Origin: an uncultured Candidatus Saccharibacteria bacterium
Lineage (GTDB): Bacteria; Patescibacteriota; Saccharimonadia; Saccharimonadales; AWTP1-31
Direction of reading: 5' to 3'
Length of the DNA: 64,000 nt
Assembly: GCA_937903325.1 (NCBI GenBank)
Contig: CALCZR010000060.1
Coordinates: 82,404-146,403 of the forward strand
Below the pieces are notes generated by a model. That model saw only the letters and a list, made by a program, of their open reading frames with translations, was not told the DNA's origin and did not search any database. The position numbers were made by a program, and so were the translations under genes. Positions 1,550-32,646 of this stretch are shown here, piece after piece. Positions within the stretch are counted from its first letter, which is position 1; each line of letters opens with the position of its first letter.

Positions 1550-1646
1550 AATTAATTAAACTTGGGAAGGTATCTACATACAATCCAATGTTCCAGTACC
1601 CGAGCCGTGTTGGACGGCGTTTCCTCTTGAGCTTTTTCACTGCTTT

Positions 1647-1666
1647 AAGTATAACCGTCTTGACCC
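1647..1666 (-). promoter_or_regulatory. Conserved upstream block of the giant-protein genes (copy 1)
   Basis: AAGTATAACCGTCTTGACCC is identical at 1647..1666 and 15777..15796. Both copies lie upstream (minus strand) of the paralogous giant genes. Read on the minus strand the block contains a -10-like TATACT. Confidence 0.35.
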
Positions 1667-1773
1667 CTATGAACCAGTAGCAATCCACGTTTCGAACTTA
1701 AGCAGCGATACTGCATCACATAACGTTAGCATCGTACCACTATTGCTGTCTTTACAACAATTGCTAATGAAGC

Positions 1774-3267
1774 CTACGCCCTGTAAGATGGCTTGTGCTT
1801 CAGCACGAGCAATAGTGTGACCGTGGCCAGTAAGATTACGCTGAGAATATATACTGACGGAGAGTTTGCACCCGTACCGCCAAGTGGAGATCCGCCATTA
1901 CTAGTGCCTGGTGAAGAGCTGCCTGCTAAGACGTATTCCACAGTGTTGTCACCCAACACGGTTTCGCCGTTGGTTTGCGCATTAGTATCCGTAACCGAGC
2001 CTTCTAGTAGGTTTAGACTGGTGATGCCTGGGTTCATGTTTTGCACACGAGCTTCCCAGGTACCATCGCCCATATCGGTTAAGGCATATACTTCTCCACT
2101 ACTAGCAACGAGGTCGTCAATAGTAAAGCTAGCACCGATAATAGCTTTATTAAAAGATATGGTAAAGCAGGCGTCGTTAGTAGTAGTTGGACTGGCTTGA
2201 CCCAAGCAGCGAGTAACGCTAGCCACTAGTTCCTCGTCGTTGTATAGAACATGCGCCACATTGTTGACGTCGAGCTCAACAACTGCAGCAACTCCGTCGC
2301 CACTACCGAAAACAGTAAAGATTGCCGGATAATCAGGATCGTTGGCGTTGCTGTTAACAAAATCTACGATAACGCCATGTAAAATAGTGTCACCACTCAC
2401 AAAGTCGGCCGTAGCGTTCACATTGAGTTGTACTTCGAAGCTATCACCACTATTAATACGGTTATTGGTTGCCTGGACACCACACCCGATAATTTGTGCT
2501 GAGTAGCCAAAGCCTTCATTTATGGCATCGCCCACCACAGAGCAACCGATCAGGTTGTAGCCATCGCCACCATTTAGGTCAGTGATACTATCGAATGTTG
2601 CCTGTTCTGGCAAGACAAGTAGTACCATCAAGCTCGAGGTATCTGCCCCGCCAGCCCCAACATCTGAGACAGTTATCTTGTAGGCAACCGGGTCTCCCGT
2701 AACAAATGGGCCGGGAGCGGTCTGCTGTAGATCAAGGGTTAGATCTTGAACATCCTGAATCAGCGCACTATCAATAGCCTGGTTATCAGATGTGTCGGGG
2801 TCTTGGTTTGGGAATCCTGGAGCGATATCCCCATCATCGGTTGTGGCAGTGATATCAATATCATCACCATCCTGACCGCTAATCGTACAGACGACATGCA
2901 GGGTTAGGTACTGCCCGGAACCTAGAACCCCGACCCATTCCCCTGTCTGGTCGTCGTAAGTACCAACATTGGTAGCAGTACTAGAACCATTAACAATCAC
3001 GATAGAATCTACATCGCAATTCTGCACCAATACATCGATAATAGTTGCCGTAATAGCCGACGGACCATCGTTATTCACCCGCACATCAAAGCCAATGGTT
3101 CCGCTTGAGGAAGTAGAGTTTGGTACGTTTAGAAGGGATGTCCGCAGGTCGGCTTCGGCAGCAAGGTAGTTACCAAGCTCACTGGTGCTGCCATACCCAT
3201 CGGCTGAGTTATATCCGCGACAGAGACGATTTAAGTCGCGTATTGTCCAAGAAGGGCGGTAAGCCAT
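1774..3267 (-). pseudogene. C-terminal fragment of a beta-helix/DUF11-type wall-anchored surface protein (signal peptide and beta-helix part missing)
   Basis: There is no N-terminal signal peptide. Near the N-terminus, ..GYGSTSELG.. matches the mid-protein GFGATSEFG / GFGSTSEF of the 1162-aa and 665-aa paralogs. DUF11-like repeats follow. The C-terminus is LGGTG plus a hydrophobic stretch plus a basic tail, i.e. an LPXTG-like sorting signal. The 5' end abuts a truncated recombinase. Confidence 0.65.
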
Positions 3268-4265
3268 TGACCGTCAAACGAATGCAATGCATCCTGACAA
3301 ACACTATTTATGCTGGCATTAATGTAGAGAAGTGGACGGGATACAAAGCCGTTAAATGTAAGTTCGATGGATTAATTAGTATCGACTTATTTAACAGAGC
3401 AAATCAGGGCAAGAAGTATATCGCCTTCAATGCAGAGGATGGTGAGTACGAGATTCAGCGGCAAGCACCAAAGAAACATCTAGTCGATAAAGTGATAAAG
3501 AATGCAGATTTTCCTTACAAGAAGCTTGTCTTATGCCCCGAATGCAGCAGTTCGCTGCTTGGTAGCGCAAGTAGGGGCAAGAACGGCAAGTACTACCCCG
3601 CTTATCACTGTAGCAATCGTGGACACTACTTTAGAGTTAGAAAGGATGACATGGATAAAAAGATTACAGAGTTTATCGGCCGCATTAAGGTAAATGATAA
3701 GCAGATCGAAACGCTTATCAGCACTATACGACAAGAGTTCGAACGACGTCAGAGCTTGTCTGGCCAAGACAGTGTGACACTTGATAAACATATTAAATCG
3801 CTCCAAATGGAGGCAGAGGCTACCATAGGTAAGATAATGCTCCTCACTAACCCAACGGCTATCACCTACCTAGAAGCCGAGATAGAAAAGATCCACCAGC
3901 AGATAACTAAACTAGAGAAGGAGAAGAAACAAATGAAGCAGCAAAAACCTATTAATATAGAGCGTATACTAGCGCGTGTACGCTTCTTTATGGAAAATTT
4001 TGATGCACTACTGATAAGGCAGCAAGATCCGCACAAAAAAGCCCAGTTATTCGGTGTATTGTTCAACCAGCTGCCGACCTATGAAGATTTAAATTATGGA
4101 ACACAAAAAACACCCCTTTTTACTGGGGTGAATCCTGTTTTTGCTCTCGCTGGAGCCGGAAAATCCGATATGGTGAACCTCAAGGGGGCTAATTCCGAAA
4201 CCTTGTTAAGTAGCCTCTTTGATCTGGCAACCAAGCTTGCAGCACAGGAGGAGAAAAATGTTTAA
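3256..4265 (+). pseudogene. Large serine recombinase, 5'-truncated (catalytic resolvase domain missing)
   Basis: Homology to the full-length copies (23611..25416, 39234..40946) starts only at ..GKPLTVKRMQCILTNTIYAGINVEKW.. The recombinase domain and zinc ribbon (CPECSSSLLGSASRGKNGKYYPAYHCSNRGH) are retained. The N-terminal ..IRVSTTKQ.. catalytic region is absent. The first ~45 codons of track ORF 3120..4265 are antisense to the neighbouring adhesin fragment. Confidence 0.8.
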
Positions 4266-4737
4266 GCTCTTCCACTGCACCCCTAAAGGCAATCTCACAA
4301 ATACTTCGTTATACAATGAGCAGTCATTCTACGATGCCTTTGTAAAAGACATTAAACGAGCAAAGACAAGCGTGGTTATCGAAAGCCCGTACTTAACCGA
4401 ACGGCGTACTATGCAATTCCTTAGAACATTCTGGAAACTACGAAGGAAAGGGGTTGCGGTTCGTATCAATACACGCAATCCACGACACCACGACAAGCTG
4501 TTAGAGATTCAGGCCTGGAAGTCCATCCGACTTCTTAGAGATAATGGCATCAAGATCTACTTTTACAGTGATATGCGCCACCGCAAGCTGGCGATCATTG
4601 ACAATACAATTCTCTGGGAAGGGTCACTCAACATATTGTCACAGGTGTTCAGCAAAGAAATCATGCGCCGGACAGTATCGGAGCAATTAGCCCGCCAAAT
4701 GGCTAGCTTCACTAAGATCAATAGCCGCTTCTGGTGA
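4258..4737 (+). CDS. PLD/HKD-family (Nuc-like) nuclease/phosphodiesterase
   Basis: It carries a canonical HxK(x)4D(x)6GSxN motif (HRKLAIIDNTILWEGSLN). It is a paralog of 25409..25894. The likely start is ATG 4258, preceded by AGGAGGAG. That start overlaps the recombinase stop in the string AATGTTTAA. Confidence 0.75.
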   Translation: MFKLFHCTPKGNLTNTSLYNEQSFYDAFVKDIKRAKTSVVIESPYLTERRTMQFLRTFWKLRRKGVAVRINTRNPRHHDKLLEIQAWKSIRLLRDNGIKIYFYSDMRHRKLAIIDNTILWEGSLNILSQVFSKEIMRRTVSEQLARQMASFTKINSRFW

Positions 4738-5527: not shown

Positions 5528-6664
5528 CTAGTTCGAACCACCCATCACTCTATCAAGTTCAGCAAGCATGTTCTTAGGCTCGCCCGAAGCAAATACGGTT
5601 CTGGCTGGTTTAAGCTTTCTAACAATACCCTCGGCGACAAAATTCTTTAGATCCTGGGGATGAAGATCACCATTAGCAAATGTGGTTTTCAACTCTGTTA
5701 TATTTTTGCAGTGTAGGTCACCGCCGTGATTTTCCGCACGTCGGACAGTAAAACCATCAGGACTATTTAGTAGATGTTCTACCCAGTCGATGATCGGGTT
5801 AAACTCGACTTCTCGTTCAGGACAAAATGCTTTAGCGATCTTGCGGCGAATGTCATCTTCTGAGTCATGAATGAAGATAGCGCTATCGGGCTTGGACTTA
5901 CTCATCTTCATACTTGTCCAAATATCTTGTTTTGACTCTTGGTCAACAATTGGCCAAACGGACGGCTTTTGAAGACCAAGAATAAGGTGATGGTGGATGG
6001 CTACTGGCTTAACTTTCTTACCATCAATAACGAGTGGTGAAATATTGAGCTTCAAAGCCACATCACGAGCAATAACTTGTGCCTTTCTCTGATCAAGCCC
6101 TGCATGCGGAAAATGTACTTGTTGCGTAAATATATCGGCAACTTGCATCATTGGGTATAGCAGCTTAGAAAAGTCTACACTGTCACCCTCCTGCCGCCCC
6201 ATAATAGTGATGCTACGCTTGGCTCGGCTTAATGAGGTGTGCTTGCTAACCTCTACGACTGTATCCCAAAAGTGGGGGTGCGTACTGTAGAGCTCGCTGC
6301 CCAGAGTAAACTTCAGGTCGTCTGGGTTTCCGCCGACACATGCAAACGCTGCACGCAGGCCTTCCTTAAAGTATCCAACGGCAACTCTCTTAATCGTATC
6401 GTGTGATCCGTCTAGCTTATCGTTAATCCATGTATGCCAGTCTGCCAGAAAGACATTGCACTCAATACCAGCATCATGCAGGTCTTTAACTTTTTGCATA
6501 CACATTAGTCCGGTGCCCAAGTGAATCTTGCCCGAAATTTCAAAACCAATGTAATGACGTAACTTTTGACCACTAGCAAGAAGAGCGTTTAGGTCGTCGC
6601 TGGTCATTACTTCTTCGGTTTGTCTGGATATGAGCTGTGCTCGTTCTTCAAGTGTCATGGTCAA
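5528..6664 (-). CDS. tyrS: Tyrosyl-tRNA synthetase, archaeal/eukaryotic type
   Basis: It is a class I aaRS with a HIGH-like motif (GKIHLGT) and KMSKS. Recalled from memory, it aligns along its length with the M. jannaschii-type TyrRS: YIGFEISGKIHLG, YPMMQVADI, DQRKAQVIARD, KMSKSKP..IRRKIAKAFCP, NPIIDW, HGGDL, LHPQDLKN. Confidence 0.85.
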   Translation of the reverse strand: MTMTLEERAQLISRQTEEVMTSDDLNALLASGQKLRHYIGFEISGKIHLGTGLMCMQKVKDLHDAGIECNVFLADWHTWINDKLDGSHDTIKRVAVGYFKEGLRAAFACVGGNPDDLKFTLGSELYSTHPHFWDTVVEVSKHTSLSRAKRSITIMGRQEGDSVDFSKLLYPMMQVADIFTQQVHFPHAGLDQRKAQVIARDVALKLNISPLVIDGKKVKPVAIHHHLILGLQKPSVWPIVDQESKQDIWTSMKMSKSKPDSAIFIHDSEDDIRRKIAKAFCPEREVEFNPIIDWVEHLLNSPDGFTVRRAENHGGDLHCKNITELKTTFANGDLHPQDLKNFVAEGIVRKLKPARTVFASGEPKNMLAELDRVMGGSN

Positions 6665-6679
6665 TACCTCGTATTATAT

Positions 6680-6755
6680 TGGTCCGGAGGGTAGGAGTCG
6701 AACCTACCTAAACTGGTTTTACAGACCAGCGCATCTGCCGCTTTGCTACCTCCGG
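6680..6755 (-). tRNA. tRNA-Tyr(GTA): tRNA-Tyr (anticodon GTA), archaeal-like: C1:G72, A73, 5-nt variable loop, encoded CCA
   Basis: Minus-strand sequence: CCGGAGG TA GCA AAGCGGCAGA TGC G CTGGT CTGTAAA ACCAG TTTAG GTAGG TTCGACT CCTAC CCTCCGG A CCA. This folds into a 76-nt cloverleaf by hand. It lies 15 nt upstream of the TyrRS start. Confidence 0.9.
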
Positions 6756-6768: not shown

Positions 6769-6804
6769 AAAAAAGCCGTTCCGTGCATATTGCACAAGAA
6801 CGAC
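6769..6804 (-). terminator. Intrinsic terminator of the T-box leader
   Basis: GUCGUUCUUGUGCA-AUA-UGCACGGAACGGC forms about 13 bp with one bulge and is followed by UUUUUU (6774..6769). The 5' arm is shared with the antiterminator 3' strand. Confidence 0.8.
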
Positions 6805-7040
6805 TTAGAAATCGTGGTACCATCTTGCTTCGCTTCATCCTCACGGAAGAAGCCTTACTAACTGAACCGAATCAGTTGTAGCTATAACGGGCTTACCCGT
6901 CGAGTCTTACTGGCATTACTGCTTTCTGGCTCGCTGCTCCGAGGGAGTAATTCAGTTACTGTAATCTACGACAGGCTCGCAACACCGCCTGCTTCAATTG
7001 TCACGATTACGAACCTACTTGGTCCTCTTCAACGCGTTTG
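6769..7040 (-). promoter_or_regulatory. T-box riboswitch leader (tyrosine-specific candidate)
   Basis: Elements seen on the minus strand:
- Stem I base GCGUUGAAGAGGACCAAGUAGG
- distal hairpin CAGGC-GGUGUUGCGA-GCCUG
- UAC triplets at 6963..6961 and 6949..6947
- F-box CCGUUA at 6890..6885
- Stem III GCUUCUUCC-GUGA-GGAUGAAGC at 6853..6832
- antiterminator CAAGA/UCUUG plus ACGA/UCGU around the 7-nt bulge UGGUACC (6822..6816)
- a competing terminator. Confidence 0.8.
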
Positions 7041-7061
7041 GCTAAATTGTTAAGCCTTCAT

Positions 7062-7090
7062 ACTCTAGCAGATTTATTTGAATATGTAAA
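7062..7090 (-). promoter_or_regulatory. Candidate sigma70-type promoter for the T-box/tRNA-Tyr/tyrS transcript
   Basis: On the minus strand, TTTACA (7090..7085), a 17-nt spacer and TAGAGT (7067..7062) lie just upstream of the leader. Confidence 0.45.
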
Positions 7091-7105: not shown

Positions 7106-7795
7106 CTAGGCTAAAATCTCTCGAACCGTAGCCTCGGCTAAGAGCTTCATGGTGTCAAAAATAGGAACAGCTCCACCACTCGGCAATAAGAGCTGCAGGT
7201 CAGTACAAGCTAGTGCAACACACTCCACATTTTGACCGGAAAGCTCGTTAACAACTTCTAGTATCAGTTCTCTATCGGAGTTTAAATGTTGACCCTCGAT
7301 CAGGCGTTGAATAATTTTGTCCATCTTTGCTCGTTGCAAATCATTAGGTGTAACAAACTTGATATCATTTTCCTTGAACTTCGATTCGTAAACATTGTTT
7401 GCGACTGTTGCAGAAGTAGATATAAGCCCCACAATGCTAAATCCTTTTTGCTTAACATATATGGCCGTTTCTTCAACGATGCTAAGCACCGGAATAGATA
7501 CAGCCTTACGTATATCTTCAATGAATACATGAAGCGAGTTGCATGGCATAACAATGAAATCAACTCCAGATTTCTCTAGGCGCTTAGCTTCGTTGACTAG
7601 AAAAGGAATGTAGCGTTCTTTCCCAGTATTAGAAGCAATGAGATCTCTCTCTATCTCAAACAAGAGCGGTACACTGGCAATAACTATTGAGGGGCGCTCT
7701 ATATGATTAAGTTTTTGGCACTGGAATATAACCTCTAAGTAAAACTCAGCGGTTGTTTCTGGACCAAGTCCACCAATAACTCCAACAGATTTCAT
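7106..7795 (-). CDS. Aspartate/glutamate-type amino-acid racemase family protein
   Basis: GGLGPETT is present near the N-terminus. The two catalytic-Cys motifs MPCNSLH and LACTDL are present. The length is 229 aa. Confidence 0.8.
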   Translation of the reverse strand: MKSVGVIGGLGPETTAEFYLEVIFQCQKLNHIERPSIVIASVPLLFEIERDLIASNTGKERYIPFLVNEAKRLEKSGVDFIVMPCNSLHVFIEDIRKAVSIPVLSIVEETAIYVKQKGFSIVGLISTSATVANNVYESKFKENDIKFVTPNDLQRAKMDKIIQRLIEGQHLNSDRELILEVVNELSGQNVECVALACTDLQLLLPSGGAVPIFDTMKLLAEATVREILA

Positions 7796-7930: not shown

Positions 7931-10627
7931 ATGCAGCAGTTATTGGATACACTCATCAATGGCCCCGCTCGCTACACCCAAGAACACCACTTGAGTCCGG
8001 CACTAACTCTAGTGGTCATAATTGTTGCCTTGTTAGCAGAGTTTGTAGGCTTCTATGCTATCTGCTTGGCAATAGTTAGATTCGTCCAGAGTATCCCGAC
8101 AATGCTTGGATATCTGCTTCGGAAGTGTGGTGTAGGCGGCAAAGAATCACCCAAAGTCTTCCTAGAGCTTACGTTTCCAGCGCAAACCGGAAAATCTGCG
8201 CCAGCAACCGAACAGTTACACACCTTACTCCGCAACCAGACGGCCAGTCGGAGCTTTTGGCAACGTTTAGCTGCACCCAAAACGACACGCTCCATGGAGA
8301 TTGTCTCTACAAGGCGTGCTGGCATCCGCTATGTCATGGCTGTACCTGCTCGAGAAGTTGAGTATATACAGAACAGCCTCCGGTCTTACCAGCCTGGCCT
8401 CAAGATTCGGGTAATAGAAGAATATCTTGGTGCAATACATGAGATATCTGCCGGAGTCGCGGAACTCAACTTAGCAGGTGATTTTGTACTCCCGCTGCAA
8501 GATCAGAAAGCTCTGAAAGACCACGACCCGATTGGCTACCTCACCGGTCAAATGACCAAGCTTGATCCTAAAGAATTAGTGGCTTTTCAGGTTGTGGTAA
8601 GCCCAGTACTTAACACTACTCACAGACGATCGTTGCGACATATTCAGTCTATGCGGGGGCGCATAAAGATGAGCAAAACGTTGTCTAACAAGTTAGTCGT
8701 CCAACGTACGCCTGTTGCCAGAATCTTGTGGCTACTCTGGTATCCGCCACTATGGTTTTTGGGAGCAATGGGTAAGATCCTAGCATTTATGGTTAGCGTA
8801 GTTACTAGCATGTTTTCTAGAGATCATGCGCTTCCCGACATGCTCATGGGCGGAAGCGACAAGAAGCGAGCAAACGACCCGTACGAGACGGAGCTAGGTA
8901 AAAACATAAAAGCCAAGCTCGACCAGCAATTATTTGAAGTCTCTCTACGCGTATTGGTGGCGTCGCCAGATAACAAACGCATTGTGCAACGCTTGAATGG
9001 TTTAGTGGACACCTTTGAGCCGTATGCCACGAGTAGTCAAGGAATTCGTGCCTATCGAAGCCTTCGCTTGCTATTCATTAAAACAGACAACAACCTATCT
9101 CGTTTTATAAGCCGTAACCTAACGCCTCATGTAGTAAGCCAACAGGTTATCTTATCTAATTCCGAACTAGCCAGCTTATACCATTTTCCTAACCCTGATT
9201 CAGTACGCACCGAAAATATAGTGCAGTCACTTAGTAAAACACTACCCGCTACCGTTGCCCTCAAAGGAGATACCCAGCTTGATGTAGTTTTAGGCGTCAA
9301 CAAACATCAGGGTAGTAGCACACCTATTGGCTTAACGGCCGATGAGCGAGAACGACACATCTATATAGTTGGCGGTACTGGCAATGGTAAAACAACCATG
9401 CTGGAGTACGGCATCGTGCAAGATATCTGTGCCGGTAAGGGTGTAGCCATTATTGATCCGCACGGTGATTCTTGCAAGAAACTCCTTGGCTATATTCCTA
9501 AAGAACGTATCAAAGACGTTATTTACCTGAACCCTAGTGACTTGGATTATCCTATTGGACTGAATCTACTGGAACTACCAAAAGGTTTGTCTGGTAGTGA
9601 GCTGGCGCATGCCAAGGATATGGTGACTGAGGCAGTTATTTCAGTACTACAAAAGATATTCGACAGTGGCAGCGAAGCTAATGCCTACCGCATTGAACGA
9701 GTGCTACGCAATGCTGTACACACCGCTTTTACCGTACCTGACGCTACACTCTTTACAGTTCTAAGACTCCTGACCGACACAACCTACCGAAACAAAGTAT
9801 CCAACAAACTGGAAGATGCTAGTCTCAAACGCTTCTGGAAAGAAGAAATGGGCAAAGCTGGTGATATGCAACGGGTTAAGATTAGTGGTGGCCCGATTGC
9901 TCGAATAGAGCGCTTTGAACGATCTGAGTCTGCCAAGCGCATGCTCGGCCAGGCTACTTCAACTATTGATTTTGACGACATCCTTGCTACTAGTAAAATC
10001 CTTATCTGCAATTTCAGCAAAGGACGACTCGGAGAAAGCACTTCCACACTCTTTGGTACAACTGTCCTGGCTAAGTTACAGCTCGCTGCTTGGCGACGAG
10101 ATGAAATAGCCAGTAAAGACCGTGTACCGTTTTATGTATATGTCGATGAATTTCAGAACTTTGCCAGCGAGTCGTTTTTAAGTCTGTTCTCGGAGGCTAG
10201 GAAATACAAGCTATTCTTAACCATGGCTCAACAATCCGTTTCACAGCTGCAAGCTAAAACCATGGTCAACACCATACTCGATAACGTTGGTACGGTTATT
10301 GGCTTTAGATCTAAAAGCCCTGATACCGAGAAGCTACTACTTCACCAGTTCAGCCCGTACATCGAGCCAGGGGAAATCATGAACCTACCAACCTACAACT
10401 TTTACATAAAGGTCGCCGCACTAGAATCGCACGAACCAATGTCGGGCGAGACACTACTGATTGAGGGTGAAGGCAGCGACAGGACGGCAGATAAAGTCAA
10501 AGCCAACTCACGGAAACAATATGCCAAAGAATATGTTGAGACAAAGCTAGAAAAGAAGCCTGAACCTGCAAAAAACTCTGTTACCGAGAAAGCTGCAGAC
10601 AGTTCACTGGCATCAATTGAAGCTTGA
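7931..10627 (+). CDS. Type IV secretion coupling protein (VirD4/TraG/TraD-like ATPase), full length
   Basis: There are N-terminal TM segments. Walker A is GGTGNGKTT and Walker B is FYVYVDEFQNF. The C-terminal ~135 aa are paralogous to the stub at 32647..33053. Confidence 0.85.
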   Translation: MQQLLDTLINGPARYTQEHHLSPALTLVVIIVALLAEFVGFYAICLAIVRFVQSIPTMLGYLLRKCGVGGKESPKVFLELTFPAQTGKSAPATEQLHTLLRNQTASRSFWQRLAAPKTTRSMEIVSTRRAGIRYVMAVPAREVEYIQNSLRSYQPGLKIRVIEEYLGAIHEISAGVAELNLAGDFVLPLQDQKALKDHDPIGYLTGQMTKLDPKELVAFQVVVSPVLNTTHRRSLRHIQSMRGRIKMSKTLSNKLVVQRTPVARILWLLWYPPLWFLGAMGKILAFMVSVVTSMFSRDHALPDMLMGGSDKKRANDPYETELGKNIKAKLDQQLFEVSLRVLVASPDNKRIVQRLNGLVDTFEPYATSSQGIRAYRSLRLLFIKTDNNLSRFISRNLTPHVVSQQVILSNSELASLYHFPNPDSVRTENIVQSLSKTLPATVALKGDTQLDVVLGVNKHQGSSTPIGLTADERERHIYIVGGTGNGKTTMLEYGIVQDICAGKGVAIIDPHGDSCKKLLGYIPKERIKDVIYLNPSDLDYPIGLNLLELPKGLSGSELAHAKDMVTEAVISVLQKIFDSGSEANAYRIERVLRNAVHTAFTVPDATLFTVLRLLTDTTYRNKVSNKLEDASLKRFWKEEMGKAGDMQRVKISGGPIARIERFERSESAKRMLGQATSTIDFDDILATSKILICNFSKGRLGESTSTLFGTTVLAKLQLAAWRRDEIASKDRVPFYVYVDEFQNFASESFLSLFSEARKYKLFLTMAQQSVSQLQAKTMVNTILDNVGTVIGFRSKSPDTEKLLLHQFSPYIEPGEIMNLPTYNFYIKVAALESHEPMSGETLLIEGEGSDRTADKVKANSRKQYAKEYVETKLEKKPEPAKNSVTEKAADSSLASIEA

Positions 10628-10651: not shown

Positions 10652-13600
10652 CTATGCCATTGGTTTGATAATATTGCTGTCTTGGCCCTGTACCTCACCC
10701 TTTACAACTGGAAGTGTGATGTCAATGGCCGTTCCGGACTTCTGCGTGCTTGTAACCTTTATGCTACCTCCACTTTGCTCAACGATTGCTTTGCTGACGA
10801 ATAGACTGAGGCCAAGCCCCTCGTGATCAAAGGTCGTAACATCCGTACCTCGTTGGAGCGGTTCAAATAATGTTTTTTGCGCCTCAGGGGTCAGACCAGG
10901 TCCGTTATCAGCCACTCGAATTCCTACCTTACCTCCAACCGTTCGTATAAGCACCGTTACGGCACTGTTGGCTGGGCTGTATTCCACTGCGTTGCCGACT
11001 ACTGCACTCAGAATGTAATCAAGCTGCTCGGATCGGAGCGGCACCAAGAGACCGTCCGTCACCGTAGTCTTTACGGTGGTGCTCTTTGTCTGAGCTTGTT
11101 GCTGGATGGCTGGATCGATCGACTGCTTGTAGTACGCACCAACATCGACACTACCTACAGGCTCGAGCTGTGTTAGCCGTTCGTAGCTAGTAAGTTTAGT
11201 AGCTAGTTTCTGCAGCATACCGAGACCATTCATTAAGAGGTGAGCATCAGGCAACTTATCCATACCCTCAGTACCTTGCCTTAACTGACCAGCATGGTGC
11301 TCTAGCGTAGGAGCGACTGACTGCAGGAGTTCTTCTTTTTGGCGAACCAAACCACGTGTGTTCACCAGATCCTGATCAATGCCAGCGTGCAAGACTTTGG
11401 CTCGGCTGTGGTAGAAATAGAGCAACCAGATAAGTAATCCGCTAAACAACGTCAGAATTATGTTGTTAGTCAGCTGTGCTCCCCGTTTTTCGTAGGCCCC
11501 CGTCAGCAACAGGGAAAGGTCAACAGCCGCTATACCTAAACCAATGGCCAGCTGGCCAGCCCAGAGATTACGGGCCTTCGTCAGCAGTGCTTGGTCTGCC
11601 TTACTAAAGCTCGACTGCGCTGCTGGTGCCAGCGCGATCTGTACCGAACCCTCAAAGCCCTGGACTGAAAGTTTTAGGGCTGCAAGCTTCTGACCAAAAC
11701 TTGCCAGAAACGCACCATCCAAAGCATGCTTACTAGTCATGAGTTCGTGTGCTCCCTGCATGACGGCTAGTGGGGTATTGAGGTAGTGCGTAACGATCTC
11801 TAGGAACTGCTGGACAGTGGCAACCCTGCGTTTTGCCGCCACTAGTGCCAGGCGAACACCACGCACAAAGCGATATTCACGCCACGCCTGTGCCGCATAG
11901 GCTACAGCAAGGAGTAGGAGTAGCGACAAGAAGAATACAGAGAACAAGCGAGCTGAGCCTCGTCGGGTGTTTGCCGAAGCCGTCTTGCTTGGTAACTCGG
12001 TAATACCCCCAGCCTGTAGTTTCTGGATCGCTTGCGGCGAGAATGGATTCTCTTCTCCTATGATTGGCGGCGTGGTGGTGGTCGTTGGAGTGCTAGCTGG
12101 CTTCTTGGGCGGCTGAATAGGTGGAGTTGGTGGCTCAACCGGCGGCGTGGTGCCAGGGGTATAGTTGTAGGTCCACCGCGAAATGTTGTTAGTATCTACT
12201 GTCCAAAAATCCCCATCGGCTTGGAATACACTTTGGAAATCGATCTCGGGTCGTTCAACACTGCTCGTATCAACAACCAGTACTCTGTTGAGCGAACTGC
12301 CACTCACAAAATTTTGCGTTGCCGTACCAGTGATATCAACTTCGAAGACACCCTGGGCTGCAACTTCGTACTGACTGGTCGAACCGACACAAATAACAGT
12401 AGTATGTCCTGGATAGTGTCTGCCATAATAGGAGTCTTCGTAATCCTCACCATCCTGCATCATTGTGCGCGTATCAACACATTGATATGGGTCAGAAATT
12501 GATTGGAAGGTAAATCCAACTGGCAAGGTCATAATCAGATTAGTGTCTGAACTCCAAACACTTGGACCAAGGTTCGTAATTGCTATGCGGAATGTTGCTT
12601 GTTTGCCTTGTGTAATCGGAAGTTCGGTAAGTAGTCGCTGTGACACACTCAAGTCATACACAGGGCAGGCCGCAGTGGAAAACTGATGGTCAGCCCCCGT
12701 ACTATACCCCTCTCCGTTATATGCCCACGCCTGGTAATGAAATGTTTTACCACATTCAAGCCCCGTAAGATCCAGGCTAAACTGCTGCGCGTTATAAGGG
12801 CCTTGGTTTTGATTCACCGAGTAGCCGTAACTGGTGGTTTCCCCGTAATTAAAGCCAACTCCCGTAATATTGCCTTGGCCAGTGTTTGTTATTTCGCCAA
12901 ACAATTTTGCGCTGTTAGTTGTGACGTTACTCGATGACCCCGTCTCTACCGCGAGCTCTGTGGGCGGAGGGCAGCTCGCAGTGGTAAACGTTTTATCTTC
13001 ACCATAGGTACCGAAGTTATCATAGGGATTTTCGGTCAAGGGCGCATAATGTTGTCGAGCCAACGCCTGGTAATGGTAGGTTGTACCACAGGTAAGATTC
13101 TGAACTGTCATAGAGAAAGGCCCCGTATTGTGACTGAGGCTAAACTTTTGAATACGATTAAGAGTCGAGTCGGCCACATAAATATTGCCGTTTTTATCGG
13201 TAACCACATCACTAATCTGCCCAAATTGGCTAGGGCCACTCCCTGCAGATCCCCAGGTAGCACGATGGCCAGCTACCGTCCCATCATAGAGGCGCTGCAT
13301 CCGTTGGTTCGCAGCATCGCCGATGTAGAAGGCCTGGTCAGCCCCCGTGCTTAGTCCAGTAGCTTGCACAAACTGTCCGTTACCCGTACCGGCACTACCG
13401 AAGCTCGATTCAAAGGTGGATGCGTTAAACCTTTGAACTCTATTATTGCCGGAGTCCAAAATAGAAAGTGATTCCACCTCACCCGTAATCCCGGATGGGC
13501 AATTAAACTGGCCTTCACCTGTTCCTGCAGCACCAAAAGCACCCATATACTGTCGTTTTATGTAACTGGAATCCGAGGCGTGTACAGCAAAATAATTACC

Positions 13601-15754
13601 CATGCGTAAATAGCTCTGCACGCGATTATTACCGCAGTCAGCTATATAGGCCTGCTCATACGTTCCTTGTGAGGCAAAATGAATGGCTCTAATATTGTTA
13701 AACTGTTGTGGTTCGCTACCACTACCGCCCAACTTGCTCAAGTAGTTACCTTCTTGGTCAAACTGCTGGATATAGTCACTACTATCGGCCACAAATACAT
13801 TGTCGGACTTATCAACTCCAATGGCGCTAATGGCGTTAAATTGTCCGTTGCCAGATCCGCTACTACCCCAATTTAGGATAAAATCACCATCCGGACTGAA
13901 TTTCTGCACACGATTACCGCCCACGTCCGCCACGTAGATATCACCATTGGACGCCACTGCCATAGGCCCTGCTCCATCAAATTGTCCGTTGCCAGATCCG
14001 CTACTACCAAAGGTGTCTACATGCACAGGTACTTGGCTCAAACTGTTCGAGCTAACATGACTGCCGTAACTAGTATCAAGCCCGTATGCAAAATATGTTT
14101 GGCCAATTGCGCCGGCAATGTTTCCAGATACCGTTCCATTAAGCGTTGCACTGGTGTCGCCTACAGCAGTGGCGGACTGTGTAGACACCGTTTCGTTTAC
14201 GAAGTTACACGGCGCGGTAGTAAAGGACTTATCTTCGCCGTACACTCGTTCGTCCAGGCTATCAATATATGCACGGTAATGATAGGTTGTTGCACAGGCT
14301 AGGCCAGAAATTTCTCGCCGAAACTCGATGTCACGATACTGGGGAACGCTCAGTTGGACTCTGTCGTAATCGGAGCTAGTTGTCAGGATTGAACCATCGG
14401 GAAGAGCTAGCGTGTCCAGAACATGCGAATTACTATTGATCGTATTAGTCCCGTTAGAATCTGCCGTCCAGGCTATGGTGAGTCGATCTCCCAGAATAAA
14501 ATTATCCTGCTCATCAATGTCAAAAGCAGGACTACCTTGTGCAATTTGTATATCAATAAAGCTTTCTGTCCCGTTGGTGGCAATTTTCTTAATCAGCCGC
14601 TGGGCTTGATACTTAATGTAAATTGATTGATCCGAACCCACTGCGACGCTCTGTGCCTGATTGTACGGCGAAGGACTGTTGATGTAGGTAGACAGCTCAT
14701 CGAGCAGTGACCCTGTCGGACCGTATCGGACTAGCTTATCTTGGAATAACACCAGTACATTGCCGGTATTCTCAACTGCAATGTCAGTCGCAGTACCGCC
14801 ACCCAGAGACCAGTCTAGAAGTTGCGTACCGTCAGTATTCACTCGGGTAATTTTGTTGTTACTAATCAGGTAAATATGTCCATTGGTATCTGCCACCATC
14901 CGGCCAAAATTATCCAAACATTCCCCTTCTTCGAGGTATATACAGTTCCACTGACTATTAAGGGTGTAGTCTGGGTTAAACTTAATAACCGTCGATTTGC
15001 CTCCACTCTGGTTATTCACATAGACATAGCCAGCACTGTCGCGAGCAAAAGTCTTTGGATAGAAGAATTGAGCACCTGAATCTTGCTGTGATATAGCGTA
15101 ACCTGTTACATAAGGAGGAAGAACTCCTGCAGGTATGGTTTCGCCATAACTGGTAGTAGTGCCGTATTGGAAGCCTCTATTGATTATGTAGTCAAGATTT
15201 GGGGTCATACCATTGGTTACTTCACCCCGTAGCTCAGTAGTCTGTTGGGTGGTTTTGGCATTGGTTAATGTCCTTGCCACCGCCGGTCCGCCAGGATTAG
15301 CAAACGTTCGGCTAAGCTGTACGCAAACTGCGGCTGCAAGCAGAATAAGTAACACCGAGGTATACGTCGACCGGAACAGAATTACTTTTTTCTTGTATAG
15401 AACCCTCGGGATAAACACCGTCTTGGCGTGGTGGAGTAAGCCATACCTAACACCTGGATCTTCCAAGGCAAGTGGTTTCTTGTGTCGCCGGTAATCAAGC
15501 TGATAGTAGACCGTCAGTACAAACAGTAGTAGGAGGCCCACAAAACCCAATGCCGTAAGCACTGCCAGGTAATCGAGCCTATTATTGGTAGATAGTAATC
15601 TCCAGGTAATCCGACTAATAGAGGGGCTGAACTGCAATAGTAATGATACACCGATCATCGCGAGCAAAGACGCAGCCATAATTATAAAATTCGTGTTGCG
15701 TTCTATTCGCCGGCTATAAAACCTTGTCTCGGTGTTTGACTTTTTTCTACGCAT
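10652..15754 (-). CDS. Giant (1700 aa) membrane protein: ~1250-aa extracytoplasmic region with NHL-type beta-propeller repeats and Ig/FN3-like and DUF11-like modules, Pro-rich linker, TM segments, C-terminal histidine-kinase core
   Basis: Features along the protein, N- to C-terminus:
- N-terminal TM helices
- recurring ..C.TTYHY(R/Q)A.. module ends
- NHL-like ..GNNRVQ(K/S/R)F.. repeats with GSGNGQF
- a PPVEPPTPPIQPPKKP linker
- an H-box-like THYLNTPL
- an HATPase_c region (DNGPGLTPE...GLGLSL). Confidence 0.8.
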   Translation of the reverse strand: MRRKKSNTETRFYSRRIERNTNFIIMAASLLAMIGVSLLLQFSPSISRITWRLLSTNNRLDYLAVLTALGFVGLLLLFVLTVYYQLDYRRHKKPLALEDPGVRYGLLHHAKTVFIPRVLYKKKVILFRSTYTSVLLILLAAAVCVQLSRTFANPGGPAVARTLTNAKTTQQTTELRGEVTNGMTPNLDYIINRGFQYGTTTSYGETIPAGVLPPYVTGYAISQQDSGAQFFYPKTFARDSAGYVYVNNQSGGKSTVIKFNPDYTLNSQWNCIYLEEGECLDNFGRMVADTNGHIYLISNNKITRVNTDGTQLLDWSLGGGTATDIAVENTGNVLVLFQDKLVRYGPTGSLLDELSTYINSPSPYNQAQSVAVGSDQSIYIKYQAQRLIKKIATNGTESFIDIQIAQGSPAFDIDEQDNFILGDRLTIAWTADSNGTNTINSNSHVLDTLALPDGSILTTSSDYDRVQLSVPQYRDIEFRREISGLACATTYHYRAYIDSLDERVYGEDKSFTTAPCNFVNETVSTQSATAVGDTSATLNGTVSGNIAGAIGQTYFAYGLDTSYGSHVSSNSLSQVPVHVDTFGSSGSGNGQFDGAGPMAVASNGDIYVADVGGNRVQKFSPDGDFILNWGSSGSGNGQFNAISAIGVDKSDNVFVADSSDYIQQFDQEGNYLSKLGGSGSEPQQFNNIRAIHFASQGTYEQAYIADCGNNRVQSYLRMGNYFAVHASDSSYIKRQYMGAFGAAGTGEGQFNCPSGITGEVESLSILDSGNNRVQRFNASTFESSFGSAGTGNGQFVQATGLSTGADQAFYIGDAANQRMQRLYDGTVAGHRATWGSAGSGPSQFGQISDVVTDKNGNIYVADSTLNRIQKFSLSHNTGPFSMTVQNLTCGTTYHYQALARQHYAPLTENPYDNFGTYGEDKTFTTASCPPPTELAVETGSSSNVTTNSAKLFGEITNTGQGNITGVGFNYGETTSYGYSVNQNQGPYNAQQFSLDLTGLECGKTFHYQAWAYNGEGYSTGADHQFSTAACPVYDLSVSQRLLTELPITQGKQATFRIAITNLGPSVWSSDTNLIMTLPVGFTFQSISDPYQCVDTRTMMQDGEDYEDSYYGRHYPGHTTVICVGSTSQYEVAAQGVFEVDITGTATQNFVSGSSLNRVLVVDTSSVERPEIDFQSVFQADGDFWTVDTNNISRWTYNYTPGTTPPVEPPTPPIQPPKKPASTPTTTTTPPIIGEENPFSPQAIQKLQAGGITELPSKTASANTRRGSARLFSVFFLSLLLLLAVAYAAQAWREYRFVRGVRLALVAAKRRVATVQQFLEIVTHYLNTPLAVMQGAHELMTSKHALDGAFLASFGQKLAALKLSVQGFEGSVQIALAPAAQSSFSKADQALLTKARNLWAGQLAIGLGIAAVDLSLLLTGAYEKRGAQLTNNIILTLFSGLLIWLLYFYHSRAKVLHAGIDQDLVNTRGLVRQKEELLQSVAPTLEHHAGQLRQGTEGMDKLPDAHLLMNGLGMLQKLATKLTSYERLTQLEPVGSVDVGAYYKQSIDPAIQQQAQTKSTTVKTTVTDGLLVPLRSEQLDYILSAVVGNAVEYSPANSAVTVLIRTVGGKVGIRVADNGPGLTPEAQKTLFEPLQRGTDVTTFDHEGLGLSLFVSKAIVEQSGGSIKVTSTQKSGTAIDITLPVVKGEVQGQDSNIIKPMA

Positions 15755-15776
15755 TGCTCTCTGGTCTATCTACTAT

Positions 15777-15796
15777 AAGTATAACCGTCTTGACCC
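15777..15796 (-). promoter_or_regulatory. Conserved upstream block of the giant-protein genes (copy 2)
   Basis: The 20-mer is identical to 1647..1666. The minus-strand TATACT at 15783..15778 lies ~24 nt upstream of the ATG at 15754. Confidence 0.35.
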
Positions 15797-15869
15797 TTGT
15801 AGACCAGCTACATCTGATTCTTGATCGTCAAACAGACCACCAGTAACGCGTCCCACTTGTCTATTATGG

Positions 15870-16487
15870 TTACAGAAGGGTCTGGAATTTTTGGTACATG
15901 GCTTTGTCGAGCGGCTTACTACTTCCAAGGGATAACGTTACGTTATGCAACTTATCGCCTTTAAGCTCAACTAGCTGATTGGCAGTAGGGCTATAAAAAG
16001 CATCCGATCCAAGCTGTATTCGGTTTTTGTCGGGTAACTTAGTAAGTACATCATACGCTTTTTTGGCGGCTTGGGTATCTTTGAATATTCTTGTAGAAAT
16101 AATGACTGAGCGAATTTCTTGGGCCTGATCGCCATTAACAATATATGCGCAGCCAGACACTGAACCCTCTGTGTTTTTCGTATTAGGGATACTGACTCGA
16201 GCTCCGTTAGTCTTCTGACCCAGGATACTCTCGAGTTTAGATAGGGACACCGTGTCACAGACGGCACTTTTAGCGTTCTTTGGAATAGTCACCAGTTGGT
16301 CTTCGACCGACTGGTTCTCTTCGCCGTCATATATGACATTCCTGGTCGGCTCCATGCGATCGTTACGGCCACGGACAACAAGAACTCCGGTTGTCACCCC
16401 AAGTACGAGCACCGCCACCAAACCCATTATGAGGCGTTTATTGAGGCGACTGCCGTGGCTATGGGTGTATTTCTTTAGGTTAGTCAA
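15870..16487 (-). CDS. Membrane-anchored hypothetical protein (205 aa)
   Basis: It has a single N-terminal TM helix (LIMGLVAVLVLGVTTGVLVV) and no recognisable motif. It is present only in element E1. Confidence 0.45.
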   Translation of the reverse strand: MTNLKKYTHSHGSRLNKRLIMGLVAVLVLGVTTGVLVVRGRNDRMEPTRNVIYDGEENQSVEDQLVTIPKNAKSAVCDTVSLSKLESILGQKTNGARVSIPNTKNTEGSVSGCAYIVNGDQAQEIRSVIISTRIFKDTQAAKKAYDVLTKLPDKNRIQLGSDAFYSPTANQLVELKGDKLHNVTLSLGSSKPLDKAMYQKFQTLL

Positions 16488-16492
16488 AGATA

Positions 16493-19400
16493 TTACCTTC
16501 TATTACTTTTTCGTTTGTGCAGCACAAGCAGCCCTGTTGATGTCAGTAGCAGCACCAGTGGGACGGTGACCATAATCTGCTGCCCGGTCTGACCCAACCC
16601 ACCATCCGATTGGGAATCACCTCCACTATTTGACCCATCACCATTATTGCTACCATTATCTGTCGGAGGATCAACACCTGGTGCAGTATAGGTGGCAAGA
16701 GCTAGCCCATTGTCATTATTGGACTGTAATGTGTCGATCATATCGTTGTTATAGCTATTGAATATGCGGTATAGGTTGGCATTGGTCGGATCGGCTGGCA
16801 CACCAAAGGTAAAGAAAGCACTTGTGAAGCTATCGGGCGCAGTTGCCGTAGTAACGTTAATGTCGACTGTTATGCTCTCGCCACTCGGCAAGCTCGACAT
16901 CGAACCAACATACGTACACAGGAGCATACTGTATCCTGGGTGATCCTCTAGCAAAGGCCCCATAAGTGCAGCGGAGTTAGGCCCACCCCACTGGCAATTC
17001 ACATCGGAATTTACACTGCCCACTAACGTTAAGTTGGGCGCTAGAATACCCACGAACAGAGCATTGGAAAGCGGGTTGAAAACAGCTTGTCCGTCGAGGT
17101 AGCGGGGGTCCATTGGGAAGGGACCATTATTAATAAATTCCACTCGATACGTTAGATTGGCGCCAGGCGCCACATCTTCGGGATTTACGAGTACAGCCTC
17201 TAGACTAGCGTCCGCCGGCTGGCTGTAGGCACGAGTGTAGTTATTGACCCCTTGCGATAGGAGAACATCGAAAAGGTCATTACCCGACCCTGCAGCTTCG
17301 CCAACTGCAGGTCCATCTGGATCGTTTACATCGGTATTAGCAAACTGCGCCAGTACATGAACAAAGAATTCTGGCTGCGAAGCATCAGTGACTTCGGCCG
17401 ATACTGTATAGGAGATGCTTTGTCCGCTCGCGAATATTGTACTGCCTCCGGTATGTGCACAAACTACTATGGAGTGGTCAGGATGGTTGGGGAGCACTCC
17501 ATCGGCGAGCGCCCCATACGCAGAACACGCCACATTACTACCAGCGACACCCGTATAGGTGAGTGATGGTGGCAGGAAGGCCATAAATAAGTCGGTACCC
17601 GCAAAGGGTAAAGGATCGTTTAACATGTTTAGGTCGAAGTCGTCTGGGCCATTATTGGTAAGTGTAATCTGGTAATTTAGTACCCCACCAACCTCAAAAT
17701 CTTCTGGATTCAGCAGCACTGCACTAGATGAAAAGTCCGATACCTCTTCGTAAGTGTATTTCGTTTCGTCGAAGTTATTGAATGAATTAGTCAACATCTC
17801 GGCGATGATATCGTTACCGCTCGTGATCGCGTCTTGGTACAGGTTCCGGTTCGGATCAAAAGTTGGAGTATTTGCGATGGTGTAGACGAGTAGATCCTGT
17901 TTACCTTCTTGGACCTCCGCCGAGATGGTATATGTCCGAGACTGGCCAGAATTGAGCATGCTAGTACCACTCGTATGGGCGCATACTACAATGCTATAAT
18001 CCGCGTGATCGGCAAACAAACCACCTTGTGAGCCCGCCGAACCAGGCCCACCATCAACACAACTCAGTCCAGAACCGCTCGCTTGACTAAACACCAGGTC
18101 ACTCGGCAAGATTAGGGCGAACAAGTAGTCTGAACTAAAGTTGGACTGGTCGAGCTCATCTAAGTTAAGATTGTCTGGTCCGTTATTCTTTAGCGTGACT
18201 TCGTAATTAAGGATATTCCCGGCAGCCACGTCCTCAGGATTTTGTAATGCAGTAGTAGCCTCTAGGTCAATGTCCCTTATGAGTAGAGAACCCTCCGTAC
18301 CAAATTCACTGGTCGCACCAAAGCCACTAGGCGAAGCAACGTTCTCTTCTGTGGCAGTCAGCGATAGGTTATCGTGCCCCACTCCAGGAATAAGGAAATC
18401 GAATTCCTCCAGCCCTATCCCGCTCGAAGTAACACTAATACTATCGATATAAGTCTGCCCCTCTCCGGGATAGTCAGGGTCGGCAGTGTCGTTACTAAAG
18501 AACTCGATCCGGTAATCACCGGCAGGTACATCCATAGTAAATTTACCCTCTGTATTGCCGCCATCCTCGATAATTTCAGTGTAACCAGGGGCATTCAGGC
18601 CACCGTTCGGTCCCGTATCATTATCCCCGCCATCACCAGTGTTCGTGCCAGATAGTAAAATACCTTTACCATTATTATCATCAATACTATTACCTAGGAT
18701 TGATATGCGCTGCGCGTTATCCCTTAAATCTATTCCCGGTCCGTTCGTAGTGTGTACGATAGTATTTTCTAAAATCAACACATCCTCGGTGTTTTCGGCG
18801 ATTATGATTCCCCAGTAGTTGGGGAACGCCGTGGTGCCATTGCCCATAACGCCAATTTTATTGCCTTCGATAACAATGTTATCTGACGCCGCAGCGGTTA
18901 GGGCCGAGTCACGGATATCTATAGCCTCCCGCTGACTGCCGGAAATTATATTGGCAGCCGCGCCAGCACCACCAATTGTAGAGTTAGTGACCCCTTGGAA
19001 TGAAATACCGGTTTTCTGAGGTCCGTTGTTTGCGAGGTTATAGAGTATTCGGTTTCCAAGAATTGATATGTTACTGGAGTCTTGCCCAAAAATAGCTCCT
19101 TCGGCGTTATGCTCAAACGAGTTACCTGCCCCACTTGCGCTACCGCCAATGGTTACGTCCGAAGCATCGCCAAGAATGACCACGGCCGCCTGACGGTTAG
19201 CTCCATAACTAGAGAAATAGGTTGTATCCAAACTAGTTACCCCGTCGGAAGCAAGCCCAACATAATTACCCAAAATTTCAGTTCCGGTATTAGCGCTGCC
19301 TCGTACCTCAATACAGTTGAGCGCACAGAAGCCAAATATGTTTCGGGCCGAACCTGTCGTGCCCCCAACTACGGCGTTACTCGTATCGTCCAAGATGAGC

Positions 19401-22298: not shown

Positions 22299-22391
22299 AG
22301 ATTACCTACATTTTACCATAAGTGTCTTATTAATTGTTGGTTGTAGGCTTACTAGCATATAACCTTATCTTGCAAAGCCTTAGGACAACAA

Positions 22392-22419
22392 ACCTCGTCG
22401 CAAGCGACAAGGTGACTTG
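22392..22419 (-). terminator. Conserved hairpin immediately after the replication-relaxation-like gene (terminator or oriT-type structure), copy 1
   Basis: The minus strand after the stop reads CAAGTC ACCTTGTCGC-TT-GCGACGAGGT, a 10-bp stem with one G.U pair. The same structure and flank occur at 37946..37975. Confidence 0.45.
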
Positions 22420-23250: not shown

Positions 23251-23486
23251 GATGTTGTGCGTTGGTTATTGTAGCGCGCGTTACATGGTCCATTCGCTTT
23301 ATAGAATATATAAAAGGAAAGAGAATATTTAATGCTATTAACAGTTTAAACATCCATAGATAGACACTATATGCTAAAAATACCTACTTATCTACAGGAA
23401 TTACGGGAAAATACCATAAAAAGGTATTGAACTACCACTATTTTCTATAGTAAACTATAACTATAATCAATAGTTTTAGGGTAGAT

Positions 23487-32533: not shown

Positions 32534-32646
32534 GTCAAACAGTCCTTTCTAGAGCACAGCGGGCTACCGCCCGCAGTGCTCCTAATTTAACAGATTAAGC
32601 CGATTCTAGAATAGACTGAGTGTTGATTATATGTGGAGGGTGACAA

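Follow-up and report, generated by a model that had tools for sequence, protein, structure and literature searches.

T-box leaders contact a tRNA at its anticodon, elbow and NCCA end, but not at base pair 1:72 or the variable arm, and their specifier codons usually end in C. A leader of this kind precedes tyrS of Bacillus subtilis, for which PMC7778990 cites Grundy and Henkin (1993). It acts at the level of transcription, with UAC as its specifier, UGGU in the bulge for the A73-CCA end and an antiterminator and a terminator that compete, and it controls a tyrosyl-tRNA synthetase (TyrRS) gene; this gene is of the bacterial type and directly follows the leader, while the ligand, a class II tRNATyr with a G1:C72 pair, is encoded elsewhere. 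The same regulatory features are found in the 64-kb stretch of DNA analysed here (the window; contig CALCZR010000060.1 of an uncultured Candidatus Saccharibacteria bacterium), where the gene next to the leader encodes the leader's own ligand tRNA (class I, C1:G72) and an archaeal-type tyrS comes after it, in a host from the Candidate Phyla Radiation (CPR) and with an Rfam score below threshold. By function the window leader corresponds closely to this classic leader of B. subtilis, from which it differs in the host phylum, the archaeal-type enzyme and the interposed tRNA gene. The locus, approximately 1.55 kb on the minus strand, probably constitutes one bacterial transcription unit, composed of a sigma-70-like promoter, a tyrosine T-box with its terminator, tRNATyr(GUA) and archaeal-type tyrS, and serving as the ordinary tyrosine system of the lineage.

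Transcripts shared between tRNA genes and an mRNA are known from the thrU-tyrU-glyT-thrT-tufB operon of Escherichia coli. Many Patescibacteria keep tRNA-Tyr and tyrS in an equivalent tRNA-Thr/Tyr/Thr(/Trp) cluster, and a shared tRNA-mRNA transcript is likewise proposed for the window. Unlike the E. coli operon, the pair in the window lineage has left its cluster and is associated with its own promoter and an acquired riboswitch.

The enzyme/tRNA pair itself is ordinary for the lineage and has been known in CPR bacteria since 2017, the window being a further member, in Saccharibacteria. Mukai, Reynolds, Crnkovic and Soll (2017, Life 7:8, PMC5370408) found that several CPR phyla have an archaea/eukarya-type TyrRS alongside a C1-G72 tRNATyr, which may bear or lack a variable arm, and concluded that the arm-bearing CPR tRNATyr derived from bacterial tRNATyr. 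The systems described there share with the window a CPR host, a TyrRS lacking the S4-like domain and a tRNATyr with C1:G72 and A73. The phyla listed there are Parcubacteria, Microgenomates, WS6 and WWE3, whereas the window is Saccharibacteria-like and the pair was found here also in Peribacteria, Chloroflexota and Dormibacterota; the occurrence of archaeal-type TyrRS in the latter two reaches beyond the CPR phyla of that list. The term 'T-box' does not occur in the text of PMC5370408, and adjacency of tRNA-Tyr and tyrS is not described in its covered passages. In the full-text literature, a coverage from which subscription papers are mostly absent, no paper was found that ties T-boxes to CPR, Patescibacteria or Saccharibacteria, and none in which a tRNA gene, an archaeal-type aminoacyl-tRNA synthetase or an archaeal-type TyrRS comes directly after a T-box. 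The new point is the T-box that precedes tRNA-Tyr and the archaeal-type tyrS.

This leader lies directly upstream of the tRNA and is absent from an earlier note on the locus. It matches the full length of the T-box model RF00230 (positions 1-219) with 87.9 bits, at an E-value of 4.7e-19 in a 3-kb search and 1e-17 in a search of the whole window. The match was obtained with Rfam in E-value mode; the default search is silent because the score lies under the gathering score of 93 bits. According to the Rfam alignment and covariation counts, Stem I is present with its kink-turn region and specifier loop (AGUA ... GAA-N-codon). When the window was compared with three related loci (L084, L087 and L005; loci are designated here by L and a number), 96% of Stem I cells were paired, against 34-49% in slid controls, and 7 of 19 pairs had changed on both sides in a compensatory manner among the four sequences. 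The folding z-score of the leader is -3.9. In the Rfam alignment the UAC specifier falls on the columns of the consensus codon, and it is invariant in all T-box copies, the base that follows it being U or A.

Both tRNA-reading elements of the leader are complementary to the tRNA encoded immediately downstream, the UAC specifier to its GUA anticodon and the UGGU of the bulge to its ACCA end, which includes A73. The bulge sequence UGGUACC is identical in L005, L008, L084, L087, L170 and L175. Direct reading of the antiterminator helices indicates that pairing is kept with different bases, namely AAGA/UCUU and ACGAU/GUCGU in the window, AAGG/CCUU and GCGG/CCGC in L005, and CCAAGG/CCUUGG and GCGAG/CUCGU in L008. 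The terminator consists of GUCGUUCUUGUGC-AAUAU-GCACGGAACGGC followed by UUUUUU, and its U-run ends 13 nt before the 5' end of the tRNA. The 5' arm of this hairpin and the antiterminator's 3' strand overlap, the minimum-free-energy fold contains the hairpin, and L005 and L008 have counterparts of it with U7. Upstream of the leader, a -35 element (CTTTACAT) and a TGcTAnnnT -10 element with a spacer of 17 are conserved in the window, L084, L087 and L170, and the similarity among these four starts exactly at the -35 element. The TTTACA-17-TAGAGT site is a predicted promoter.

The tRNA gene is one of two that ARAGORN detects in the 64-kb window, where it is called tRNA-Tyr(GTA). The earlier note had described a 76-nt tRNA with C1:G72, A73 and a 5-nt variable loop, and this description is borne out by ARAGORN, by Rfam and by the sequence, which reads, 5' to 3', CCGGAGG-UA-GCAA...CUGGU-CUGUAAA-ACCAG-UUUAG-GUAGG-UUCGACU-CCUAC-CCUCCGG-A-CCA. 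Thus, the acceptor stem CCGGAGG/CCUCCGG provides the C1:G72 pair, the discriminator is A73, the anticodon GUA lies in the loop CUGUAAA, the CCA end is encoded, and the variable loop UUUAG makes the molecule class I. The acceptor stem has undergone a compensatory change, from G4:C69 to C4:G69, in L084 and L170.

The adjoining gene begins 21 nt downstream of the tRNA on the same strand. The earlier note gave its product 378 aa, which is correct for the open reading frame (ORF) if TTG 6664 is taken as its first codon; translation more likely begins with ATG 6658 and then yields a protein of 376 aa identical to a database protein (P0001). Its assignment in that note to the archaeal rather than the bacterial type proved right. 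The protein scores 399.7 bits against NF006330, the NCBIfam model of the archaeal type (cut-off 220), and 86.6 bits against the bacterial tyrS model TIGR00234, below the cut-off of 113.8. The Pfam search returned the class Ic catalytic domain PF00579 (residues 31-347, E 2e-35) as its sole match, and the S4-like C-terminal domain of bacterial TyrRS was not found by it. The HIGH-like motif HLGT and KMSKS are seen in the translation. The best relative of solved structure is 2cyc from Pyrococcus horikoshii, with an end-to-end alignment at E 4e-127; 7fg6 and 2cya come next, and the further solved relatives are other archaeal and eukaryal enzymes. By these matches the enzyme is an archaeal-type TyrRS, predicted to charge a C1:G72 tRNATyr, and the claim that a cognate archaeal-type TyrRS and a tRNATyr of archaeal identity are encoded together in a bacterium stands. 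The protein identical to P0001 is found on 7 contigs from different samples, the longest being NODE_7 of ENA ERZ650265 with 283 kb, and is therefore no assembly accident.

Table 1. Coordinates of the tyrosine locus and the adjoining gene in the window
Feature	Position	Strand	Description and basis
Promoter-like site	7062..7090	-	TTTACA, 17-nt spacer, TAGAGT with extended TG; just 5' of the leader; consensus scan
T-box leader	6769..7045	-	Rfam match 6793..7041; Stem I, Stem II, IIA/B, Stem III, antiterminator, terminator
Specifier codon UAC (Tyr)	6947..6949	-	Stem I specifier loop, GAA-U-UAC-U-C ahead of CCUC stem
T-box bulge UGGUACC	6816..6822	-	Rfam alignment and sequence reading
Intrinsic terminator	6769..6804	-	Hairpin 6775..6804 and U6; sequence reading, minimum-free-energy fold
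tRNA-Tyr(GUA)	6680..6755	-	76 nt; ARAGORN, Rfam tRNA 59 bits
Shine-Dalgarno GAGG of tyrS	6668..6671	-	Sequence reading
tyrS, archaeal-type TyrRS, 376 aa	5528..6658	-	HLGT and KMSKS motifs; Pfam, NCBIfam and solved-structure matches
Racemase gene (Asp/Glu-racemase family)	7106..7795		Adjoins the tyrS unit; 350 nt separate it from the tRNA

A scan covering a single genome from each GTDB species returned 290 relatives of the TyrRS, and a metagenome scan added 80 loci. The best 80 of the 290 include Saccharibacteria, Peribacteria, Wolfebacteria, WWE3, Moraniibacteria and unnamed Patescibacteria, as well as many Chloroflexota and Dormibacterota (some of them chromosome-scale assemblies), DPANN archaea and Thermococcus. 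In dozens of loci from Patescibacteria, Chloroflexota and Dormibacterota, tRNA-Tyr is located directly 5' of tyrS on the same strand, an arrangement that is very frequent among these relatives; the Patescibacteria that have it include further Saccharibacteria as well as Peribacteria, Wolfebacteria and WWE3. Every tRNA-Tyr directly upstream of these bacterial tyrS genes has C1:G72 and A73, and belongs either to a class II long-arm form of 83-86 nt or to a class I short form of 73-77 nt. In many Patescibacteria the pair is part of a conserved cluster, [tRNA-Thr(UGU)]-tRNA-Tyr-tyrS-tRNA-Thr(UGU)-tRNA-Thr(GGU)-tRNA-Trp, whereas the lineages with a T-box are without the canonical tRNA-Thr and tRNA-Trp neighbours. 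Archaeal-type TyrRS is widespread in the Chloroflexota and Dormibacterota loci between L028 and L083 (for example L031 with accession OZ244848.1, L049, L058 and L078), often after a class I C1:G72/A73 tRNA-Tyr. In two further loci, L172 (4780..4855) and L174 (4926..5001), with TyrRS of approximately 66% identity, the CCA end of tRNA-Tyr shares its final A with the ATG of tyrS, so that the two genes overlap by one base.

A comparison of the enzyme with bacterial, archaeal and CPR sequences, as the earlier note had advised, was performed by neighbour-joining on 85 sequences. The window TyrRS and its genus-level relatives L084 and L087 (83-84% identical) fall within a clade composed solely of Patescibacteria, which is sister to a cluster of DPANN archaea and Thermococcus, while Chloroflexota and Dormibacterota each form clades of their own. 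Among the matches listed, identity outside the genus of the window does not exceed 67%. The TyrRS of loci labelled Saccharibacteria occupy scattered positions in the tree. The pair is most likely the ordinary tyrosine-charging system of the lineage, and it may be the sole such system of the genome, which is visible here through the window and the part of L001 that reaches beyond it. The earlier note had regarded a lineage-typical pair in conserved synteny as the finding that would speak against a transferred cassette; the first half of this is largely what was found, since the arrangement is normal in many Patescibacteria and the pair has been published, but the local synteny is not conserved.

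The history of the tRNA appears to have differed from that of the enzyme. Class I tRNATyr of Patescibacteria have a D-arm (GGCAGAGCGG..AUGC) and a T-arm (GUAGGUUCGAnUCCUAC) in common with the class II tRNATyr of the same group (L011, L074, L018), and in L004, L025, L090, L172 and L174 they fill the syntenic slot of the class II forms. This likeness to long-arm Patescibacterial tRNATyr argues against an imported archaeal tRNA, and descent from an archaeal tRNA gene transferred together with the enzyme does not appear to be indicated. The argument is suggestive only, because the tRNAs are short and the comparison extended to a single archaeal tRNATyr. The simplest history would be one in which an ancestor of these bacteria exchanged its bacterial TyrRS for an archaeal-type enzyme, the resident bacterial tRNATyr adapted to it by first flipping pair 1:72 to C:G, and the long variable arm was lost later, in some lineages including that of the window.

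Three lineages, with only approximately 61-64% identity among their TyrRS proteins, have the order of T-box, terminator, tRNA-Tyr and tyrS in common. The first is the genus of the window, with copies in L084 (83.5 bits), L170 (81.5 bits) and L087; the second is a lineage labelled Peribacteria, with L005 (71.4 bits) and L175 (67.8 bits); the third is L008, an unnamed bacterium, with a copy of 67 bits and a much shortened Stem I. In L008 (5495..5730) this stem consists of GGG, a 15-nt loop ending in UAC-A, and CCC, with no distal platform, and a long terminator follows. This copy is similar to the T-boxes with an ultrashort Stem I that are known from Actinobacteria. Rfam searches returned no T-box in L004, L025, L088, L171, L174 or the tested Chloroflexota and Dormibacterota loci, nor did a motif scan, the only search applied there, in L172. 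Where a CysRS or TrpRS gene fell within one of the loci, no T-box was detected ahead of it, and no further T-box lineage emerged from the 80 additional metagenome loci. Chloroflexota candidates with a TGGNACC motif upstream of tyrS (L036, L045, L053 and L072) were rejected, having no Rfam match; by our own reading several of the Chloroflexota motifs contain AGGAGG, which resembles a Shine-Dalgarno sequence. A covariance model of Stem I built for this work (R1) recovered only its training sequences over 0.99 Mb of loci and was discarded as too specific.

Taken together with the known mechanism, the arrangement suggests antitermination by uncharged tRNATyr at the leader. Transcription would start near 7055, and uncharged tRNATyr would bind the nascent leader through its anticodon GUA at the specifier UAC, while its free ACCA end would pair with the UGGU of the bulge and stabilize the antiterminator. 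RNA polymerase would then read through into the tRNA gene and tyrS, so that leader, tRNA-Tyr and tyrS would be co-transcribed, and RNase P and 3' trimming would free the tRNA from the transcript. Charged tRNATyr would be unable to make the 3'-end contact, and the terminator would form 13 nt ahead of the tRNA. The riboswitch would therefore control not only the synthetase but also the supply of its own ligand tRNA. A T-box can serve such a hybrid system unchanged because it reads neither the 1:72 pair nor the variable arm, which are the features that changed. A broader reading, the case for which we consider evenly balanced, is that a CPR T-box governs an operon of its own ligand tRNA gene and an archaeal-type synthetase, joining a bacterial riboswitch, a bacterial-derived tRNA with archaeal identity and an archaeal-type enzyme in a unit of approximately 1.5 kb that senses, supplies and charges, and that has remained intact while moving within Patescibacteria.

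Several observations weigh against a working leader in an inherited unit. All T-box copies, including that of the window, fall below 93 bits, and because they score just under the Rfam gathering score they are missed by standard annotation. The distal motifs of Stem I are divergent, with AUUGA instead of AGAGA at the AG-bulge, and the base after the window specifier is U, where a purine is usual. The window specifier loop also has one extra C, and the UAC register rests on L005 and L008; a threonine register (ACU or ACA), which this C had raised, was rejected because the C is paired in L005 (GAAGG/CCUUC) and because the loop of L008 ends in UAC-A before the stem; the usual final C of T-box specifiers also speaks for UAC. 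In L008, approximately 130 nt lie between the terminator U-run and the tRNA, so that the tRNA may have a promoter of its own. Moreover, a promoter-like consensus site at 6701..6673 overlaps the 3' part of the window tRNA and could give tyrS some expression independent of the T-box, although sites of this sort are here no more frequent than in shuffled sequence. With respect to inheritance, the flanking genes differ among close relatives, which one would not expect of a housekeeping locus passed on by simple vertical descent, and the TyrRS tree carries no support values.

The low scores, the divergent Stem I with its non-purine after the specifier, the truncated stem and long spacer of L008 and the lack of any T-box in most relatives would also be compatible with a decaying or non-functional remnant, or a weak regulator, leaving tRNA and tyrS in practice constitutive. 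This alternative is considered unlikely. The full-length architecture has been kept across lineages with such divergent TyrRS, compensatory changes maintain the helices, UAC and UGGUACC are invariant, and the terminators are intact with their U-runs. Moreover, only 13 nt separate the window U-run from the tRNA, and our own reading revealed no good -35/-10 match in or around this interval.

The earlier note had favoured a different explanation for the locus, namely a co-transferred, self-sufficient and potentially orthogonal cassette between mobile-element modules; such a cassette would be carried by mobile elements or lie between them, and would coexist with a normal bacterial tyrosine system. 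The conserved block indeed extends exactly from the promoter to the tyrS stop, over approximately 1.5 kb, and its flanks differ between the window and L084, L087 and L170; the similarity between L005 and L175 (87% over 1553 bp) is limited to the same interval. The racemase gene is located 5' of the unit in the window and L087 and 3' of it in L170, large serine recombinases are found at a distance of 1-5 kb in the window (a fragment), L084, L087 and L005, and both the loss of the canonical tRNA-Thr and tRNA-Trp neighbours and the scattered tree positions of Saccharibacteria-labelled TyrRS fit mobility. Nevertheless, a cassette would be expected to have left marks that are not seen. There are no direct or inverted repeats at the unit ends (5528 and about 7095), and a search for attachment-type repeats of the tRNA-Glu or tRNA-Tyr ends found none. 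No cargo genes are common to the relatives, whose recombinases are alike at family level only (22-33%), and the GC content of the unit is like that of its surroundings. With TyrRS identity outside the genus limited as described and the enzyme placed among Patescibacteria, no recent donor is visible; the tRNA, like the enzyme clade, looks Patescibacterial. No bacterial-type tyrS is visible in the 64-kb window or the part of L001 beyond it. The cassette thus appears distinctly improbable.

The placement 'between mobile-element modules' fares better in one part than in the other. A truncated serine recombinase is present at 3120..4265, but genes of the VirD4/VirB4 type are ubiquitous and chromosomal in Patescibacteria, mostly without relaxases (PMC12102498), and on this ground the type IV secretion system and coupling-protein genes of the window were rejected as evidence of an integrative and conjugative element. 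The unit thus lies in plastic genome regions and has left the canonical tRNA cluster, and its relocation within Patescibacteria is possible.

As for orthogonality, the orthogonal TyrRS/tRNATyr pair of Methanocaldococcus jannaschii (PDB 1j1u, with numerous engineered variants) is of the same enzyme family as the window protein (E 7.6e-45) and has the same identity set of C1:G72, A73 and GUA anticodon. The window enzyme, with 376 aa, belongs to a longer, Pyrococcus/DPANN-like subgroup, whereas the M. jannaschii enzyme has 306 aa. Compared with what we take to be the M. jannaschii tRNA, the window acceptor stem differs at one pair (5:68), and the window D-arm is unlike it and like that of Patescibacterial tRNATyr. 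The window pair would not be orthogonal in its host because it is probably the primary system.

Concerning the host, the genome is, as far as its genes indicate, that of a bacterium of the Saccharibacteria-like Patescibacteria (CPR). The window encodes MurD, a MurL-like epimerase, HisKA/HATPase kinases, CotH proteins, VirB4-, TrbL- and VirD4-like proteins, serine recombinases and an rve integrase, and the named relatives of its MurD come from Ca. Saccharibacteria (76%, 67% and 60%) and Patescibacteria. An artefact in which archaeal (DPANN) DNA was assembled onto bacterial sequence or placed in its bin is exceedingly improbable, even though CPR and DPANN bins are often cross-contaminated according to PMC5370408, since the genes lie between bacterial genes in a continuous contig and recur over samples (the 7 contigs mentioned above), a bacteria-specific T-box and a sigma-70-like promoter precede the unit, and the same arrangement is found on chromosome-scale bacterial assemblies.

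If the leader of the proposed transcription unit works, it would extend the T-box mechanism into CPR bacteria, and would provide both a natural case of a T-box that reads a class I, C1:G72 tRNATyr and a riboswitch that controls the synthesis of its own ligand. Such a system would imply that T-box sensing is indifferent to the split between archaeal and bacterial tyrosine identity, and that a T-box can autoregulate tRNA supply. The long-arm C1:G72, short-arm C1:G72 and T-box-coupled forms also constitute a clean comparative series for the rewiring of tRNA identity after synthetase replacement.

Several observations concern the mobile-element genes of the window and its relatives. The truncated gene at 3120..4265 (plus strand), 1.3 kb downstream of tyrS, encodes part of a large serine recombinase, with the recombinase and zinc-ribbon region present and the N-terminal resolvase domain missing; repeat families D2 and D3 link it to two full copies, and it is probably a remnant. 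Between it and tyrS are a PLD-like nuclease gene (4219..4737), a 69-aa ORF and an XRE-type helix-turn-helix gene. Two paralogous modules, at 19962..25416 and 35044..40946, lie 15.6 kb apart with approximately 74% nucleotide identity, and each has genes for an LTD/CotH protein, for a Replic_Relax protein and for a large serine recombinase. In the second module the recombinase gene overlaps, with its 3' end, tRNA-Glu (40906..40980) on the opposite strand, a layout also observed in L084 (tRNA-Gly), L087 (tRNA-Pro) and L005 (tRNA-Arg); such recombinase modules at tRNA genes look like tandem or serial integrative elements. A 174-bp non-coding segment is 90% identical between L005 (5303..5475) and L175 (1628..1801), and abuts the tyrS unit in L005 but lies 3.8 kb away in L175. 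The 3.8-kb stretch beside the unit in L175 encodes HEPN_AbiU2, AAA_15/21 and other defence-type proteins, and looks like an island inserted next to the unit. The VirD4-like gene (7931..10627) has a repeat of its 3' end near 32.7 kb (10283..10477 and 32646..32840, 72% identity), adjoining the rve integrase gene (31380..32408); both places are matched by L170, and the second may be a fragment of another coupling-protein gene.

Elsewhere in the window, at 59801..62406 (plus strand), the gene after MurD encodes a protein homologous to the UDP-MurNAc-L-Ala-L-Glu epimerase MurL, with 329 bits to NF041275 (cut-off 700), a pair that hints at a route to the peptidoglycan stem peptide in which L-Glu is added and then epimerized. 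Giant paralogues of 1700 and 1665 aa, encoded at 10652..15754 (minus strand) and in L001 at 15206..20203, contain NHL/beta-propeller repeats and a C-terminal HATPase_c domain. A conserved sequence of 38 nt occurs at 1640..1677 and 15770..15807, the second copy just 5' of the start of the first giant gene. Finally, a 68-nt repeat of 85% identity (41089..41156 and 43819..43886), located ahead of the ORFs 41177..43261 and 43837..45480, is probably a shared promoter or 5' leader.

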